From the NCBI RefSeq assembly GCF_004010195.1, contig NC_057758.1, positions 809,029-873,028 on the forward strand: a stretch of 64,000 nucleotides of DNA, in the 5' to 3' direction. The DNA is from Chiloscyllium plagiosum. Taxonomy: Eukaryota. This document shows, piece by piece, positions 3,730 through 48,289 of this stretch (position 1 is the stretch's first letter; the number at the start of each line of letters is the position of its first letter). The translations under genes were made by a program, and so were the position numbers. The notes beneath the pieces are model-generated. The model worked only from the letters and a program-made list of their open reading frames with translations, made no database searches and had not been told where the DNA came from.

Positions 3730-5240
3730 AATAAAGAAATAGGAACAGAGGAAAGCCATTCAGGCGCTCGAGCCTGACCTGCCATTTAAAGCGACCATGG
3801 CTAATGTTACCTCGTCATTCACTCCAGTTTCCAGCACACGCCCTTCAACATATTACCAATTTAGAAATTAGCACGTCTTCTCCAATATTCAGTGTGCAAG
3901 CATCCACTGTACTCTGGAGTAATGAAGTTGACACACTCGCGACCGTTTGAGAGAAATATTATTTCCTTAATTCTGCTTTAAATCTAATACCCCTTATCCG
4001 AAAACAGTGAAGTTTCATTCCAGATTTCCACTGAAGATGAAGCATTTTCGTATCAATCTCTGTAGCATTTTACTGATCTTAGATTGATCTATTCGCATTC
4101 TGCCAAACTCCACAATGCAGGCCATACTTCTCATCCCGAAGTCAATGAATGAACCTTCGCCGAACCGCCTCCAATACAACTACATACCTCCTCAAATAAG
4201 GGGAGAGCAGTTACATGCAATAATCCAAGTTTAGTCTAACTACTGTCTTGTAGAGATGCGGTGACACCGACTTACTTTTATGCTCTATTCGTTTCTCAAT
4301 TAATGACAAAAACTAATTTGTCTTCCTTATTTCATACTCTCCGTGCATGCAGGTTGTGTTTAATTCTTACAAATGGCCACCCAAAGATCTCTGCAGCAAA
4401 GCAGTTTGAAGGATAACGTAACTAATTAGCTCAGAGGCTGAACCGTGGTGCTATTACCACAAAGGACATGGTGGAAGTAAAGGGGGAAAGGGAAGGTTGT
4501 GGGTGAGCGAGTTTGTTGGCTCAGTTGACTGGACAGCAGGCTTGCAATGCAGAGTGATTTCAGCAGAATCCGCTCGATTGCTCAGAGATGTTAGGGCTAT
4601 CGCGCCAAGAGTTCTGCTACCATATGACCACTCATCTGAGACATGACGGCTCCCTGGATAGCCTCAGCACTGAGTCACCTCTCTAGTGAGTCAGCAGCGC
4701 TGCGATGTTAGTAAGACCATGGGAAGTAGGACCAACAGGCCTCTTGAGCGTGTTCCACCTTTAAATAGGAGCACGGATGGTCTGACATACCTCGGGTTCA
4801 TCTCCTTAGCCTTTCTAACCAAGCCTCAATTTCCTATCACAATCAAGAATCAATCAGCTCAATCTTAAACATACACAAGAACTTTACTCCAGCAGTACTG
4901 TACGAAGTCCCAAAGACATACAATCCTCTGACAGATGAAATTCCTCCTCTTCTGAGTCCAAAATAGCATTCCTTGTCTTCGAAGGTGACCTTCTCTGATT
5001 CTTGCATGAACGCGAAGCATATTCTTAGCATTAAAGTTTATAACCCACTAAAAATTCTCTATTCAAATGAGATCACGTCTCTTTCTTCGACATTGCAGAG
5101 AATAGAGTCCCACACTGTTTAGTTTATGCCCAGAAGGCACTGCCTCCGTAACGGGGTTCACTCTCGTGAAGACACAAATAGTTGCTTTCCATGAAATAAT
5201 GGTTATAATCTCAACACTAGCCCAGATATGATCTCATGAA
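3730..5240 (-). mobile_element. Old CR1 3' fragments (two), with a SINE-like piece near 4500-4720
   Basis: Reverse-strand CR1 3' ends (aggaacagaggaaagccattcag...ctcgagcctg; gtaggaccaacaggcctcttgagc) followed by degraded ORF2 sequence. Confidence 0.6.
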
Positions 5241-27069: not shown

Positions 27070-27990
27070 CTCCTCCAAAGGCTTCTGCCTTTCAATGTCA
27101 AACTATGCCCCCTTGTCATTGACCCTTCAAATGAGGGTAGCAGCTTCTTTATGCACACTCTGCCCGTGTTCCTCATAATCTTGTATAACTCAAAAAGGTT
27201 TCCCCTCTAATTTCTCTGCTCCAAAGAAAACAGCCCGAGTATGTCAAGCCTCTCTTTGGAAGTAGGCTGCTCTTTTGCACATAGAAAAGTGCAGCGCAGG
27301 AAGAGGCCCTACTGCTCACCATACGTGACCAAACAACGATGCCGTTGTAAATTGCTCCCATCTGCCTGCATATTGCCATTATCCCAAGAAACTCTGCATG
27401 TTCCTGCGTCTGTTTCAATGCTTTTGCAACATATCCTTTTCTCCCACTTCCCCGGCAATGTGTTCCAGACACTTACCACCTTCTGCGTAAGACTCTTACC
27501 TCACATATTATCTCCACATGTTTCCCCCCTCACCTTTATTTTCTGCCTACTCGTCTTTGCCATTTCCCCCAGGATATAGATTCAGGCTAGGTAATCTATC
27601 CACTTTTCTCAACATATTATGTAGTTCTATAATTTCGCCTCCGGGTCTGACACTTCAACGAAAACATTCTAAGTTTGTCCAAATTCTCCTTATTGCTGAT
27701 ATCCAACCAATACGAGTAACATGCTGGTGAACCCTTTTCCCACTCTCTGCAAAGCCTCCACATCCTATCTATACTGTTGTGACTAGAAATGCGCACAGTC
27801 CTCAAGCTGTGACCGAACTGAACGCCTACAAAGCAGCTAAACTGCTGCAATAAAAATACCATCAATATCCGTTGACCATTTTGCCCTCCCTCCTATCTGT
27901 CACTATTTTGAGATATTCATTTGAACATAAAATGAGCCATGTATAATCAGTGCTTGTCAGTGTCATCCAGTTTTATGCACATACTTGAGA
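27070..27990 (-). mobile_element. Degraded CR1 3' fragments
   Basis: Minus-strand NKENLDKLRMFSLKCQTRRRN; CR1 3' UTR motifs. Confidence 0.65.
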
Positions 27991-28117
27991 AAACAGTGGC
28001 TTCAGGCTCATTGGATTGACGCCATCAAATCGAGCCTGAATTCCTTCAAGGACAGATTACTCCAGTACGAAATTCAAATGTTTTCCAGCGTTGTAAGTTG
28101 CCTTTTCTTCATTCATG

Positions 28118-28242
28118 TCACAAACGTACGCAACACACTTGAAAGAGTGGGCATCCCCCATTGACCATAGCCATTCCGGCACGGGTGTCGCATGGTTTCT
28201 TACTGCAGTAACTTTTTTCTAAAACGCATGAAAATAATGGAG
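28118..28242 (-). CDS. Beta-defensin exon 2 (mature peptide)
   Basis: Branch-like ctaat plus acceptor ttttttcttcatttactctgtatcctag|CT (phase 1); (T)PLFSCVLEKSYCSKKPCDTRAGMAMVNGGCPLFQVCCVRL*; C-x6-C-x4-C-x12-C-x5-CC; no repeat similarity seen. Confidence 0.88.
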
Positions 28243-29639
28243 CTAGGATACAGAGTAAATGAAGAAAAAAATGTTATTAGTTTGATACAGCAGGACGTCC
28301 ATTTGCATTCTCATAGACGTTCAAAAAGCCAGAGTAAAGCAAATTGCTACCTCCCTGTTCTAATCAGAAGTTATTGATGTAACAACAGTTCAGATTGCTT
28401 TAACCGTGTTCTGATAACTGTTTGTGAAGCCCTGAACCATGTACAGTGGTTATAATATTGTCATAGCTGGTGCAAAACTGAATGATATGTCCCCATTGTC
28501 GAGAAGCTAGGAAAGAGAGACAATGAGGTTCTCGAACAGTTTTTTTTTGGCAAGGAGTGAGACGGCATGGGAAGCTTTGACGGGCTTCAAAGTGGACAGA
28601 TCCCCAAGTCCGTAATTCAGAAACGTCTTTATTCACAGAGTTGTCAGGATATGTAACGTGCTGCTGTGGGATCGTAATGTAGGCGAATTCCACGAGAGAG
28701 TGAGTCTCAAAAGAGAGTCAGATATAGGTTTGGCAGGGTCGAACGGGGAAGGACATGGAGATACAGACGAAAAATGAGAGCAGTTGGGCAACTCTTTTAG
28801 GAGCCGGGAAAGAGACGCTGGGTTAAATGTCCTCCTGTTGTATGGTAAACTCTATGATACTGACATGATGAAAAGCTGAACAAATGCTGCCCAGTTAGTG
28901 ACAGTTTCAAGACCGGTGTGAAAGGACGTGATGGACATAGTTCCTTTTAGAGGAGGTACTTTATCTTCGGGACCAGGCATATTGAAGCACAACTAAAAAT
29001 GACAGCATCAAGCATTGAAGATCAGATATGGAGGAGCTCAGATATCGTGAAAGTTTTCAAACAGGAGCGAATTGCAGATAACAGAATAATAGTTGGAGCA
29101 GCAGAAGTGGGCGGTGCATGCCATCTGTCTCTTTTGCATTTCAATGAGATCGTGGTTTTTTTGATAAGCCTCAGGTACATTTTCTAAATTTTTCCTGATC
29201 ATTTTCGATTTCCCTCCTTATTAAAAATCGACATGTCTGTCTGGCCACGGAACCCTCTCCAGTGTGCCTGCAATGTCGGCGCGCATTTCCTCAGAGGAGG
29301 GTCCCAGAGCTGTTCTCAGCATTCCAGTTCTACTCCGAATGCAGTCTTCTACAGAGTAGAATTTTCGGACAGCCTCCTGATTTCCATGGTTCATTCCCTT
29401 TGAAATGAGATTCGGACAAAGACTTTAAGCAATTCTCAAATCAACCTGCTCAGCCATGTTATTACAAACCTCTGGAACAGAAAGGAATTAAACACAGTTC
29501 TTCCTGAAGCAGCAGTGAGGGCTCTACCACAGCACTTCAAAAGCCCACGGTCAGTAAGCTGCATCATGTCAATGGGACATCTGAGGAGAAAGGGAACAAC
29601 TGTTTGACTATCATTATTTTAAGAAAATTTGAAATCAAC

Positions 29640-29835
29640 TCAGAGAACGTGGGGACTGCAGATACTGGAAATCAGAGTCGAGACTGTGTTCCTGGAAAAT
29701 CACAGCAAGTTAGGCATCATCCAAGAAACAGGAAAATCGATGTTTCGGGCATAAGCCTGATGCCTGAACAGTCGATTCTCCTGCTAATTGGATGAATCCT
29801 GACCGGCTGTCCTTTTCCATCAACACACTCTCTGT
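29640..29835. mobile_element. Short Penelope terminal-repeat-derived element inside the defensin intron
   Basis: ggactgcagatactgga..ggaaaatcacagcaagttaggcatcatcc..cgatgtttcgggc..ttccatcaacacactc. Confidence 0.7.
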
Positions 29836-30052
29836 CATTATTTGGGATTATGGACAGGCTCGGAATTCTGATTGGTAGCTTTCTCAGTAGAATCCTTTTA
29901 CTCTTCCATGATAAAAAAAAGAAAAAGTAGGGTGAGCTGAACGAATGAACAAATGTGATCCAACCGAACAGCAGTACACACCGAAATACCACAGTGGCCC
30001 CTGTTCCAAACTGTAGTTTCCGTATTTTCCAATGGGAAGATGTACAAACATC

Positions 30053-31177
30053 TTTCCCCATGGTAGGCTTATGCGGAAAGTCAGGAGGCATGGAATAGAG
30101 GGAGATTTGGCCAGTTGGATAGAAAACTGGCTAACCGGTCGAAGTCAGAGAGTGGTGGTAGATGGTAAATATTCAGCCTGGAGCCCAGTTACAAGTGGAG
30201 TTCCGCAGGGATCAGTTCTGGGTCCTCTGCTATTTGTAATTTATATGAATGACTTGGATGAGGGAGTCGAAGGGTGGGCCAGTAAATTTGCAGATGATAC
30301 GAAGATTGATGGAGTTGTGGATAGTGAGGAGGGCTCTTGTCGGCTGCAAAGGAACTTAGATATGATGCAGAGCTGGGCTGAGGAGTGGCAGATGGAGTTC
30401 AACCCTGCCAAGTGTGAGGTTGTCCATTTTGGAAAGACAAATAAGAATGCGGAATACAGGGCTAANNNNNNNNNNNNNNNNNNNNNNNNNNNNNNNNNNN
30501 NNNNNNNNNNNNNNNNNNNNNNNNNNNNNNNNNNNNNNNNNNNNNNNNNNNNNNNNNNNNNNNNNNNNNNNNNNNNNNNNNNNNNNNNNNNNNNNNNNNN
30601 NNNNNNNNNNNNNNNNNNNNNNNNNNNNNNNNNNNNNNNNNNNNNNNNNNNNNNNNNNNNNNNNNNNNNNNNNNNNNNNNNNNNNNNNNNNNNNNNNNNN
30701 NNNNNNNNNNNNNNNNNNNNNNNNNNNNNNNNNNNNNNNNNNNNNNNNNNNNNNNNNNNNNNNNNNNNNNNNNNNNNNNNNNNNNNNNNNNNNNNNNNNN
30801 NNNNNNNNNNNNNNNNNNNNNNNNNNNNNNNNNNNNNNNNNNNNNNNNNNNNNNNNNNNNNNNNNNNNNNNNNNNNNNNNNNNNNNNNNNNNNNNNNNNN
30901 NNNNNNNNNNNNNNNCAGAGTGTTACAAGGGGACATAAATTTAAGGTGAAGGGTGGAAGGTATCGGGGAGATGTCAGGGGTCGGTTCTTTACCCAGATAG
31001 TGGTGGGGGCATGGAATGCGTTACCTGTGGGAGTGGCAGAGTCCGAATAATTGGCGAACTTTAAGTGGCAATTGGATAGGTACATGGATGGGTGCTTAAG
31101 CTGGGACAAATGTTCGGCACAACATCGTGGGCCGAAGGGCCTGTCTCGTGCTGCATTGTTCTATATTCTATGTTCTA
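30053..31177 (+). mobile_element. Young 5'-truncated CR1 inside the defensin intron (antisense to the gene), spans a gap
   Basis: PHGRLMRKVRRHGIEG..SGVPQGSVLGPLLFVIYMNDLD..SKFADDTKI (RT); (ttctatg)n tail. Confidence 0.95.
30466..30915. other. Assembly gap (N run)
   Basis: Ns. Confidence 1.
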
Positions 31178-31207
31178 TCTGTATGTAAGATTAATGGAAA
31201 AACGTAC

Positions 31208-31268
31208 TAGCTGTCGCGGGTTCCATTAATACCAAAGCTCCAAGCAGCAAAAGCAGCACGTTGAACAT
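31208..31268 (-). CDS. Beta-defensin exon 1 (signal peptide)
   Basis: ccatcATG (A at -3); MFNVLLLLLGALVLMEPATA plus A|gtacgt; the phase-1 donor matches the phase-1 acceptor at 28242; A-x-A cleavage motif. Confidence 0.82.
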
Positions 31269-31290
31269 GATGGTTGTGCTTCTGAGAGTG

Positions 31291-31327
31291 AGAATGATAA
31301 GACAGGAACATAGCTACACTTTTTATG
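31291..31327 (-). promoter_or_regulatory. Candidate core promoter of the defensin gene
   Basis: CATAAAAA (31327-31320) about 32 nt upstream of an Inr-like TCATTCT (31297-31291); the same pyrimidine stretch could instead be a splice acceptor for an upstream non-coding exon. Confidence 0.4.
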
Positions 31328-32429
31328 AGCTCACAGAATATGCTGGTGGTTTTAATCATTGACACAATATCGACTGCCTCCACTTGTATTCTATTAAGAC
31401 TTAAATCACGAACTGAAACGGACGACAACTGAAATCAAATATTAAAGCTGTATCCTGGACTATCGATTTACAATCCAAAAACAAATGCAGGCCTGACTAA
31501 TGATTGAACTGAACGAAGATCGTAATCAATTTCATACTGTAACAGGAAGAAGCCACTCATTCCCTCGAGACAGCGTAACCACTCTATAAGAACAAGGTTG
31601 ATCTATGGGATAACTCCACATGGTCGATATTTTTAATATCCATACTTGTTTTTAAAAAAGAAAACCACTTCAGTTGTAAATTTAAGAACGTAAAGTGACC
31701 ACCAAATAAGTAAGTCAAAGTTAAAACTCTGAAATTCTTTCTACCTAGAAATGCCTTCTACCATAATTCCTGAATAAATTGGCCTTCATTATTAAGAGAT
31801 TGACATGGCCGAAATCAGAAATTATTTTCTGTCCCTGGTTGATTTTTGAGAAAGTGAAGATAAATGATTTTTTTGAACTGTTATAGCTCACATGATGTCC
31901 GTAGACACAATATCGTTGGGTGGTGTGATGGGGGTGATGGGGGGAAGTGAGGATAAAATTTCAAAACTTTTATTCCACTGCATTTTTCACGTCAACCTCA
32001 ACCTGTGAAAATAGCTTTTCATAATCGATGTTGTCTCTCTAAGTTACCACCAAGAACATTTCGATTATATCAGCGCAAGCTTCGTCCAGTTTGAAAACTT
32101 GAAGATTTAGAATTGAAGATCCTGATCTTTTAAAATCCAATTTCTGCGAGACGATTTCTATCTATCTGAATGAGAGCTGACACGTCACTTCCTGAACTAA
32201 CTGAATAAAACTTATTCCAAGAGCGACAGCCTCGTCTCCACATCTTATTACTCCTTCACAATTGTAACTTGTCTGATGGACAGAGAGGGCAGGCAATGGC
32301 AAGACCCCATTGTCGACCAAGTTACAATCAAATTGTCGTGTTGTATGCCAAACGGGACTGCAAGGTTCACACATCACCTCGCCAACTGCAAGGCCTAGGA
32401 AAGCTGCACTTTCAGTCAGTTCAATATTG

Positions 32430-33440
32430 TGACTGCCTGGGCCCAGCATTTATTGCTCATCCCTAGTTGCGCCTCGAGAAAGTGATGGTCGAACCACTGC
32501 AGTACCACGAGCTATAGGTAGACCGGGAGCGAGGGAAATCAAGACTTTGATCCAGAGACACTGAAGGAACCGCAATACAGTTGTGAGTCAGAAAGGTGAA
32601 CTGCTTTAAGAGGAACTCCAAGGGGATTATGTTCTTATACAACATAAATGAGTATAGCAGAGAAACGCCGTTCAGCCATTCATGTTTGGACCAACCATCA
32701 TGGTATTTTAAACGTATCACATTTTCCTACTATCCCTCTATTACTTGTTTGCTTATGTGTCTGTTTTCTGCCTTTTGCTTCTAGATCTTAGTGGCTGTGG
32801 TTTTGCAAAATGTCAACGAAGAACCCTTGAGTTTCTGAACAATGCCTTGTAGACAGGACACTTCGACTGATCGTGAATGTTGGAGAGAGTGAATGGCTAT
32901 GGATGTAATGTCAATCCTATGGGCTGCTTTGTCCTGGAAAGTGTCGGGCCTCTCAAGTATTGCTGGAGCTGCATTCATGTAAGAAAGCTTGGAAGTGCTG
33001 CATCACACTCCAGATGGTTATGGGGGTTTTGAATGCGAGATAGTTGCTGCAGAGTTCCAACCTTCTGAACGGCACGTTTAACCACTGCATGGAGTAGTTC
33101 AATTTCAGGTCAGTTGTAAACGCCGAGCTATCAATACTGGGCAATTTAGTGACTGCAGTGCAGTCAAGTCAAGTGGTCTTGATTAGATTATCCCTTTTCA
33201 GAGGTCGTCATTGTCGGGCAGTTATGAAAGTTGAATGCTGCTGCCAGTTATCAACCCAAATCAGGATGTGCCCAAAAGTTGTTGTCTTTCGAAATCTTGA
33301 GTCAGTATCTGAATGATGCTTGATATTGTGTAGTCATGAGCGAACATCCCACGTCTTTCCTTACGATGCAGGTAAGGCCCTAGAAGGTAAGGCCCCATAC
33401 AGGTGAAGATGGTTGGGCCGAGGGCAGTTGTAATGTTTGA
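32430..33440 (-). mobile_element. Old non-LTR (CR1/L2-group) 3' remnants
   Basis: cagcatttattgc(c)catccctagttg..gagaa(g)gtg motif, also seen at ~61340 and ~63735; degraded ORF follows. Confidence 0.6.
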
Positions 33441-43856: not shown

Positions 43857-44165
43857 TAGATTAGATTACCTACAGGAAACAGGACATTTGCCCCAACCAG
43901 TCCACACCGATCCTCCGAAGACTAACCCATCCTGACACATATCCCTCTGACTAATGCACCTATCCCTATGGGCAATTTAGCAAGGGAAATTCATCTGCAC
44001 ATTTTTTGACTGTGGGAGGAAACCAGAGCAGCCGGAGAAAACGCACGCAAACACGGGGAGAACGTGCAAATGCCACATAGACAGTCGCCCGAGGTTGGAA
44101 TCGAATCTGGGAGAATTGCGCTTTGAGGCTAGCAGTGCTAACCACTGAGCCACCGTGCCACCCCA
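43857..44165 (-). mobile_element. HE1 V-SINE, near full length
   Basis: (ttaga)n tail; acacggggagaacgtgcaaa; cagtgctaaccactgagccaccgtgcca head. Confidence 0.92.
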
Positions 44166-44172
44166 ACACCTG

Positions 44173-46451: not shown

Positions 46452-48289
46452 TTTAAACATCGAGTGGTCGTTTCAAGTATCTTTATTTATTTTGTTGGTT
46501 TGCTTGGGTGGACAAAGCTTGGGATAGTAAGGGCTCTTTCAGTCGCCAAACGTTTTCTAGATGTGGATGCAGTGACTTTGGAAGTTTTGGAAAATTGAAT
46601 AAGACAAAGCTGCAGGAATTTGCAGAGAATCTGGAATTGAAACTCCTTCCTTTTAAGAGGAAATGAGAGATAATTACATCAGTAGCTTAGTATTTCAACT
46701 GGCTGGAGAAACCATCAGAATCTATAGAGTTGGCAATAATTCAACTGAATATGAAGCAGCTCGAGTTAAAGGCGATCACAATTGTGTGATCACAAGATCA
46801 CAGAGGCACAAGCTGAAGCAGGAGAAATGAAAAGGCACAGTTAAGAAAGTTGACAATGTCCTATCCGAGACTTTTTTGACCAAATAAGTGACACAGTGAA
46901 GAAGCAAAATGTCAACATGCAAGTTTATTTAGCTCTGCTAAGCTGATTCTGTTACAGCAGAAAATGAGAACCTTAAAACGTTATATCAGAAGGCATTCAT
47001 AGAGAAGGAAATTCAATGCATTCCTTGTGTATTATTACTTAGCAAATGATGTCTTATGAAAAAGGAGGCCATCACACATTCAAGTAGATGGGAAATGGGC
47101 AGAGATCCATCAAATTCTTTTGCCAGTAGGGTTTGGAAAGGAGGTGCAGCGAATGTCACATGAGCGACCACTTGGAGGTCATTTAGGTGTGAGGAAAACT
47201 CAGGCTAAAATACAAAGACTTCTTTTTAACTGGCCTGCACTACACAAGGATGTAGTTGAATTTTGCCAGGTATGTCATATGTGTCAGCTAATCGGAAAGC
47301 CAGAGGGAGTAAAGAAACCTGAAAGTTTAATACATCTTCCAGCACTTGAGAGACATTACACAGGTGTCTTGATTGATTGCATAGGTCCCGTACCTCAAAT
47401 AAAATGTGGGAATAAGTATTTATTAACAACAATGGACATGTCGACTAGATTTCCAGAAGCAATCCTATTATGCAACGTCTGAGCTGTAAGGGTTGGAGAA
47501 GAATTACTTAATATTTTTACGAGATGCAGACTGCTGATACAGATCTAGTCAGACAAGGAACAAACTTCACATCCAAACTATTTAGGGATGTTATCGATAG
47601 CTTGGGAATAAAGAAATTCAAATTTACTGCGTACCATCCTGAATCACAGGGCATGCAAGAGAAATGGCATCAAACACTAAAGATCATGTTGCGATCTTAT
47701 GGTCAGGATTATCCAGATGACTGGGATCAGGGAGTTCCGTTTGTACATTTTGCGATAAAAATGAACAGAATAAATCGACCAAATTCAGACCATTTGAATT
47801 ATTTTTGGGCACCAAGTTACAGAACGGTTAAACTTGATGAAGGAGAAATTAAAAACTCAGAATTCAGTGAGCACACAATTGGACTAGGTATCACACTTTA
47901 GAGAATTATTAAGTATAGCTGCATTTACAATTATCAAAGCATAGAATGAAACTGCAAACGGATAAGAAATCACAAATTCATAATTTTGCAATTGGGGATA
48001 AGGTATTACTTCCAGTGAGAGGTCAACACTGAAAAGCAAGCTTTAGGGAACCTTATCAAATCGAGAGAAAATTGAATGAGGTGAACTACTTGATAAGGAC
48101 TCCAGACAGGAAGAAATCGCAAAGAGTATGTCATGTGCATATGCTGAAAAGATATTTTGATAGGGAAGGAAAGCAAGAGGAGATAGTGTTAATCATTACA
48201 GCACAGAAGGAAGAACAAAGCTCAGAGGATTCCGAATTGGCCATTCCTCAAATCAAATTGGACAATGACGAAGTTGTCAAAAATTGGGA

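Follow-up and report, generated by a model that had tools for sequence, protein, structure and literature searches.

A structurally intact, probable beta-defensin gene and its divergent multigene family in the shark Chiloscyllium plagiosum

A 64,000-nt stretch of the Chiloscyllium plagiosum genome (assembly GCF_004010195.1, contig NC_057758.1, positions 809,029 to 873,028 of the forward strand), here called the window, carries on its minus strand a gene of two exons, 31268-31208 and 28242-28118, coding for a six-cysteine peptide. Our results indicate that this is probably a structurally intact gene for a small secreted peptide, belonging to a divergent, lineage-specific branch of the beta-defensins and having a putative host-defence role as a cationic peptide. 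The gene has relatives in a beta-defensin cluster of the same genome, and these conserve both its splice sites and its six cysteines. A preliminary description of the window, made from the letters alone, dealt with this one gene. Searches of the species' own genome (a 3.56-Gb assembly of 101,977 contigs, in which the window is C49:809029-873028) showed that the gene does not stand alone but has dozens of family copies.

The two exons were established by strand reading and translation and join in phase 1 (Table 1). The joined coding sequence of 186 nt gives a precursor of 61 amino acids (aa), which consists of a signal peptide and a mature peptide of 41 aa. Exon 1 covers the 20 codons of the predicted signal peptide and the opening base of codon 21. 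Over residues 4-15, the hydrophobic core of the signal has a mean Kyte-Doolittle value of 3.19, and the signal part ends in A-T-A, with small residues at -3 and -1. The first cysteine (C1) comes five residues after the predicted signal cleavage, and the six cysteines of the mature peptide (C1 to C6) have the spacing 6-4-12-5-0. With five K+R against two D+E residues, the peptide has a net charge of +3. The two-exon phase-1 model of the preliminary description, with its coordinates, acceptor, 61-aa product and 41-aa mature part, matched the minus strand letter for letter, and the spacing and charge given there had the same values when recomputed. It was also right that the open reading frame (ORF) track had missed the gene: the frame of exon 2 stays open over no more than 51 codons and lacks an ATG, so a list of ORFs would pass it over.

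The boundaries of the intron were likewise correct, but its length of 2965 nt is not established, because a run of 450 N (30466-30915) lies inside it and neither its true length nor its content is fixed by that figure. High-copy repeats occupy about 29983-30465 and 30916-31178 of the intron, the second of them beginning about 30 nt past the donor. In the DNA run X9, word depth on these repeats was 1e5-1e6, compared with about 11-45 in unique DNA flanking the exons, and both exons themselves had the depth of unique DNA, about 15-26. The X9 DNA contigs contain both exons unchanged. Against the window, 17 differences are listed in their unique flanks, two of them between the TATA-like box and the ATG.

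Table 1. Features of the two-exon gene (positions in the window).
Feature	Position	Strand	Remarks
5' untranslated region and proximal promoter	31269..31420	-	kept in paralogues (alignment of 15 copies)
Promoter block TCTTAATAGAA	31399-31389	-	conserved with paralogues
Promoter block ATTGTGTCAATGATTAA	31368-31352	-	conserved with paralogues
TATA-like CATAAAAAG	31327-31319	-	52-59 nt 5' of ATG
Exon 1, coding part, 61 nt	31208..31268	-	ATG at 31268; end ...GCT A|GTACGT
Splice donor GT (A|GTACGT), phase 1	31206..31207	-	read directly
Intron	28243..31207	-	with N run and high-copy repeats
Branch-point-like CTAAT	28280-28276	-	followed by a polypyrimidine tract
Acceptor AG, ...ttttttcttcatttactctgtatcctag|CT	28244-28243	-	exon 2 opens at 28242
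Exon 2, coding part, 41-aa mature peptide	28118..28242	-	stop TGA at 28120-28118
Probable 3' untranslated region	27960..28117	-	CATAAA hexamer at 27977-27972

The exon-2 peptide had 42 matches in the genome, 34 of them at E<=1e-3, and among these 34 there were 24 without and 10 with internal stops. Twenty-two copies were read from 20 loci, and an overlap between two of these left 20 distinct exon-2 copies. The intact ones all hold six cysteines, S-Y/F/H-C-S, G-x-C-P and CC; stop-bearing copies also occur (L003, L018, L019). The invariant columns of exon 2 are the six cysteines, the S after C2, the G-x-C before C4 and the P after C4, and the cysteine spacing of the paralogues is 6-4-11-5-0. In 19 of the 20 distinct copies, the six cysteines are in register and an AG behind a pyrimidine tract stands two bases before the first full codon, the latter showing that the phase of the intron is conserved.

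Exon 1 with the adjoining 150 nt upstream gave 35 genome matches; about 30 of them extend over both exon 1 and promoter, with an identity of 69-77%. On contigs C97408, C98700, C101047 and C96582 and at 7.83 Mb of contig C49, an exon-1 copy precedes an exon-2 copy of like orientation by about 1.8-1.9 kb. The distance from exon 1 to exon 2 is about 2.05 kb in the subfamily-E loci (n=3; Table 2), and the introns of the paralogues measure about 1.8-2.1 kb. When 15 exon-1 copies were aligned, the ATG was in register in 13, and the donor was GT in 11, GC in two and lost in two; the donor GTACGT is common to the copies of subfamily E. A TATA-like CATAAAA and the upstream blocks are conserved among the exon-1 copies as well. 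The paralogues hold the ATG, donor, acceptor and six cysteines in register, which bears out the intact gene model proposed earlier. At the level of sequence, they confirm the two-exon structure and are the strongest evidence obtainable without RNA.

These copies also bear on a simpler explanation, namely that the reading frame arose by chance or is part of a transposable element. The window is rich in repeats, the only Pfam match among 25 of its ORFs is a retroelement integrase fragment, and its second six-cysteine motif sits in a dispersed repeat. Nevertheless, the sequence data leave this explanation almost no probability and effectively refute it. The depth on the exons is far from that of the intron repeats, and a relaxed six-cysteine pattern, found twice in the window, was found in none of 50 mononucleotide shuffles. 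The copies lie mainly on C49 and small unplaced contigs, where they form exon 1-intron-exon 2 units whose promoter, splice sites and cysteines are conserved.

The copies were assigned to subfamilies A to E (Table 2). Subfamily E has a G-rich loop between C1 and C2 (D-G-G-G-R-F-C), and L041 on contig C8 is intermediate between subfamilies A and E. In a rough comparison of the window copy with six paralogues over 40 codons, the ratio of non-synonymous to synonymous substitution (dN/dS) was 0.23-0.59, with dS 0.7-1.4. DNA identity between the window copy and subfamily E was 52% in the mature exon, compared with 75% in the promoter and exon 1 and 70% in the 3' flank, indicating that the mature-peptide exon has changed faster than its non-coding surroundings. 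A mature-peptide exon that evolves faster than the signal exon is the classical beta-defensin pattern, and mammalian beta-defensins are reported to have a mature exon that outpaces its non-coding surroundings.

Table 2. Subfamilies of the six-cysteine family.
Subfamily	Members	C-terminus	Net charge
A	window copy, singleton	...CCVRL	+3
B	L002, L004, L005, L017	...CCVRL	+1 to +2
C	L009, L011 to L016, L020	17-residue tail	-1 in core
D	L006 to L008, L010	10-residue tail	-2
E	L027, L028, L031, L039	...CCLPL	+1 to +5

Several loci of the family have an arrangement of their own. For subfamily B (L034 and L035), inspection of about 9 kb upstream turned up no exon 1. The exon-1/promoter copies at L030 (C49:1.63 Mb) and L033 (C49:2.40 Mb) lack both ATG and donor; with no six-cysteine exon found within about 8 kb of them, they are probably solitary pseudo-exons. 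At L021 (C97408:9500-16500), exon-1 copies at about 838 and 2567 are followed by exon-2 copies at 4451 and 5205. This order, E1-E1-E2-E2 and not E1-E2-E1-E2, may be due to alternative exons, to unequal duplication, or to misassembly of a small unplaced contig. C4 and C5 have been lost together at L040 (C49:2610073-2610189) and L042 (C49:2597078-2597194), where the sequence reads …G-E-G-P…R-W-R-C… and four cysteines are left. Both keep open frames, good acceptors and a tail ending in …LESI as in subfamily C, and an exon-1 copy precedes L040 by about 1.8 kb.

The location of the family links it to the beta-defensins. A search of the own genome with the beta-defensin family PF00711 found six-cysteine exons preceded by an acceptor at L055/L056/L058, L060 and L053; as a control, three of three such canonical exons passed Pfam hmmscan, with 24.3, 23.7 and 25.9 bits against a cut-off of 21. 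Two types of these Pfam-type exons had 59 and 42 genome matches; many came from small unplaced contigs, and many from C49. On C49, a 10-Mb contig, the Pfam-type exons lie at 3.30-8.90 Mb, interleaved with the window's family, which occurs there at 0.84, 2.60-2.61, 6.09-6.51, 6.73, 7.83 and 8.26-8.87 Mb; the window copy is outside the dense part of this cluster. A second Pfam-type cluster is located on contig C46 at 3.76-4.40 Mb.

Profile comparison and gene structure point in the same direction. The family profile aligned with the Pfam-positive exons in hhalign over 37 columns with all six cysteines aligned, at a probability of 64-79% and E 2e-5 to 6.5e-5. When the columns were shuffled with the cysteine columns fixed, the mean score was 12.3 (standard deviation 3.6) and one of 100 shuffles reached the observed 24.1; when all columns were shuffled, 0/100 reached it. 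The G two residues before C4 is invariant in 18/18 aligned sequences of both groups. Beta-defensins have a cysteine spacing in the range of about C-x4-8-C-x3-5-C-x9-13-C-x4-7-CC, with G-x-C motifs before C2 and before C4, and the window spacing fits this range. In the G-R-F-C of subfamily E, the G precedes C2 by three residues and thus departs from a strict G-x-C. The window gene and its paralogues have a phase-1 intron directly before the cysteine domain, as expected of beta-defensins. Passages of one paper name a phase-1 intron where the cysteine domain begins as a feature that beta- and big defensins have in common (PMC7203481). In the ESM Atlas, the two nearest clusters both belonged to PF00711, at 0.84 and 0.79; these values are below the threshold of 0.9 and give a lead only. 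We consider it likely that the window family is homologous to the beta-defensins.

Structure prediction gave a divided result. With an 18-row alignment, one of five AlphaFold2 models reached a predicted local distance difference test (pLDDT) of 81.7 and a predicted template modelling score (pTM) of 0.52, the other four being at 55-59; this alignment took in four Pfam-positive beta-defensin exons and is therefore not independent of the hypothesis. The confident model has three strands, at residues 10-13, 23-26 and 35-39. In Foldseek, its sole PDB match at E<=10 was human beta-defensin 1 (2plz, E 8.9, TMq 0.49). VIA-align against 48,161 chains gave 22 at Z>=2, with a maximum Z of 3.1. All 22 are defensin-type by title: 12 beta-defensins, four alpha-defensins or RK-1, one big defensin and five cnidarian cysteine-rich peptides. 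The list is uniform but the scores are low, and the three-stranded beta-defensin fold is compatible with these results.

Comparison with known systems places the window gene closest to the vertebrate beta-defensins (PF00711), among which human beta-defensin 1 (hBD-1; 2plz, 1e4s), hBD-2 (1fd3), crocodile CpoBD13 (7t9q) and mallard AvBD3 (7lzl) are fold neighbours of the model. Like these, the gene has a signal exon, a phase-1 intron and a single exon for a six-cysteine peptide of roughly 40 aa, and the peptide has C-x6-C-x4-C-x12-C-x5-CC, G-x-C before C4 and a net positive charge. Its family also resembles them in forming a tandem multigene cluster with pseudogenes and in having a mature exon that evolves faster than the signal exon. 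Unlike them, the family has no Pfam match, and in the window peptide S-Y-C takes the place of G-x-C before C2 and the loop between C3 and C4 is longer and contains Met; both oddities had been pointed out in the preliminary description and are real, the loop being longer by one residue. In further contrast, its sister subfamilies are acidic, with C-terminal tails of 10-17 residues.

The Pfam-positive exons of the same genome (L053 on C101976, L055 at C49:5.71 Mb and L060 on C74664) share a contig or cluster with many copies of the window family, and they have an acceptor before a six-cysteine exon of 36-39 aa, as in the window gene. L053 also shares P-F-S-C, N-G-x-C and a C-terminal ...CC-x-x-L with the window peptide. 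However, these exons are only 21-34% identical to the window peptide, they pass the Pfam cut-off that the window family does not reach, and a genome search with exon 1 and the promoter detected no likeness to them in exon-1 or promoter DNA.

Other small disulfide-rich peptides are further removed. In the big defensins of invertebrates and amphioxus, a C-terminal six-cysteine domain follows a phase-1 intron, according to passages of the same paper (PMC7203481). Oyster Cg-BigDef1 (6qbk) is a structural neighbour of the window model (Z 2.2), but the window peptide has no hydrophobic N-terminal domain, C1 following after five residues. The cnidarian peptides (tau-AnmTx Ueq 12-1, 5lah; helianthamide, 4x0n; ShI, 2sh1) are small and have three disulfides, and 5lah had the top VIA-align Z of 3.1, within 1 Z of the beta-defensins. 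They differ in phylum, gene structure and function (ion-channel or enzyme ligands), and our data contained no evidence of sequence kinship with them. Alpha-defensins have the spacing C-x-C-x3-4-C-x9-C-x6-10-CC and a long anionic propiece, in contrast to the 6-4-12-5-0 spacing of the window peptide, which has no propiece.

The observations in this paragraph, together with the features of the window copy described further below, weigh against an intact beta-defensin gene in the window. Neither the 61-aa precursor nor any of 12 family members matched Pfam Defensin_beta (PF00711) or Defensin_beta_2 (PF13841) at E<=10, and the family profile found no defensin among the PDB sequences, where it matched only an antibody chain and a RING peptide (E 0.16-0.36). 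The precursor and two further queries had no scoring match in a large protein collection, and the lone full-HMMER match of the exon-2 peptide among protein representatives, a 962-aa tandem-repeat protein, was judged spurious. The window copy does not have the G-x-C before C2. AlphaFold2 with ten paralogues only reached a pLDDT of 56.8, and Foldseek with this low-confidence model gave 0 matches; the Z-scores listed above are low, and the confident model is not independent evidence. Subfamilies C and D have net charges of -1 to -2, so that a bactericidal role need not apply to the entire family. Many copies are on small unplaced contigs and are perhaps haplotype duplicates, which makes copy numbers uncertain. 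Of the checks proposed in the preliminary description, profile comparison gave a match in hhalign against same-genome exons and was blank in Pfam hmmscan, and structure prediction gave one confident model in five and none for the family alone. The kinship it claimed is upheld with moderate strength by clustering, the hhalign match and the fold neighbours.

The absence of Pfam and PDB sequence matches, the unconfident family-only model, the acidic subfamilies with C-terminal extensions and the one Cys-preserving shuffle in 100 that attained the hhalign score would all fit a secreted six-cysteine family that is merely convergent on beta-defensin spacing and gene structure. Such a family would be non-homologous, with perhaps another fold, other disulfides or another role, for example as a reproductive or signalling peptide. 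We regard this as very unlikely. The window's family lies intermixed with Pfam-positive beta-defensin exons along one contig, with a phase-1 intron at the same place and with the G-x-C before C4 common to both groups. In addition, subfamily E and L041 are cationic and have a G two or three residues before C2, bridging the two groups, and all 22 structural neighbours are defensin-type.

The state of the window copy itself has to be considered separately. Its 3' flank aligns with paralogues of subfamilies B and E at 66-70% identity over 270-400 nt. About 140 nt past the stop, it has CATAAA (27977-27972) where 4/4 aligned paralogues hold AATAAA, and the next AATAAA is 577 nt downstream. The donor has A, not G, at position -1, the intron is laden with repeats and contains the N run, and the gene, at 0.84 Mb of C49, is remote from the main cluster. 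These features could mean that the copy is a silent or decaying paralogue, which descends from a functional beta-defensin-like gene and retains its ORF and splice sites, with expression lost or weak, as a young pseudogene or relic at the edge of the cluster. The hexamer, the repeat insertions with an intron of at least 2965 nt compared with about 1.8-2.1 kb in the paralogues, and the distance of about 0.8 Mb or more to the nearest other family element on C49 agree with this. So does the tendency of the family to make pseudogenes, as seen in the 10 of 34 exon-2 matches with stops and the two of 15 exon-1 copies without ATG and donor. We consider such a relic unlikely, but clearly less so than convergence. 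No damage is seen in the 61 codons, in the ATG, GT and AG, in the TATA-like box or in any of the nine residues invariant in the family, despite 30-33% divergence of the non-coding flanks from the nearest paralogues, and the dN/dS of 0.23-0.59 against the paralogues is also at odds with decay. CATAAA can serve as a minor poly(A) signal.

In two single-cell poly(A) RNA runs labelled with the same species, sampled at about 2% and 6%, no read fell on either exon, a depth too thin to test expression; RNA reads from a single-cell run fell on the intron repeats only. Transcription of the window copy appears reasonably likely.

If the gene is an intact beta-defensin gene, as we favour, its TATA-type promoter would give a transcript of about 0.4 kb. 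Exon 1 would supply a 20-residue signal peptide that may be cleaved after Ala20, and the phase-1 intron, placed right before the cysteine domain, would separate it from exon 2, which is predicted to code for the 41-aa peptide of net charge +3. This peptide would fold to the three-stranded beta-defensin scaffold with the putative disulfides C1-C5, C2-C4 and C3-C6, and might act in host defence outside the cell, by perturbing microbial membranes or by signalling to immune cells. Antimicrobial activity of the predicted peptide is possible but somewhat doubtful.

The rest of the window contained no other exon of the family, the next best match of the family profile being at E 0.58. The second six-cysteine motif, at 32909-33001 on the plus strand, has a TAA directly before C1 and no acceptor, and its only Pfam match is DUF7267 at E 0.12. 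It lies in a dispersed repeat with 509 first-look candidates genome-wide, of which 40/40 scored ones match, on many contigs, and it was rejected as a chance motif and not a gene. A weak match of the canonical profile at 43994-44128 on the minus strand (E 0.0026) proved spurious, being a tRNA-derived repeat resembling a short interspersed element (43994-44170), read in frame. On the plus strand, 47120-47479 is an ORF with an Integrase_H2C2 match (E 6.3e-13), a retroelement remnant and the sole Pfam match among the 25 ORFs of at least 110 aa.

Antimicrobial peptides of cartilaginous fish have barely been described. Passages of a 2019 review on the subject name only transferrin, squalamine and kenojeinin I (PMC6795676), and a table in a 2025 review names only kenojeinin I (PMC12734493). 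A search of full-text literature found no title on beta-defensins of cartilaginous fish, and the papers containing both 'defensin' and 'elasmobranch' were all on other subjects by title; this coverage did not extend to subscription journals and genome annotations, so the gene cannot be called undescribed.

To our knowledge, beta-defensins are expected in all jawed vertebrates, and the value of the finding is therefore comparative rather than conceptual. The size of the cluster and the partly acidic subfamily that is invisible to Pfam are its more interesting by-products, and standard Pfam-based annotation would miss this whole subfamily. Tentatively, the beta-defensin repertoire of this genome, with upwards of 100 defensin-type exons, the majority on a single 10-Mb contig and a second cluster on C46, may be among the largest of any vertebrate, and a Pfam-invisible clade in it that includes the window gene may have radiated into cationic, acidic-tailed and four-cysteine members (C4 and C5 lost), a proposal that we hold to be rather doubtful at present. 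If it is true, part of the family would have moved from microbe killing to new extracellular roles, and the diversification of defensins would date to the base of the jawed vertebrates. The window gene and its cluster offer concrete candidates for host defence in sharks, and may serve as an outgroup for the expansion and diversification of the beta-defensin locus in jawed vertebrates.

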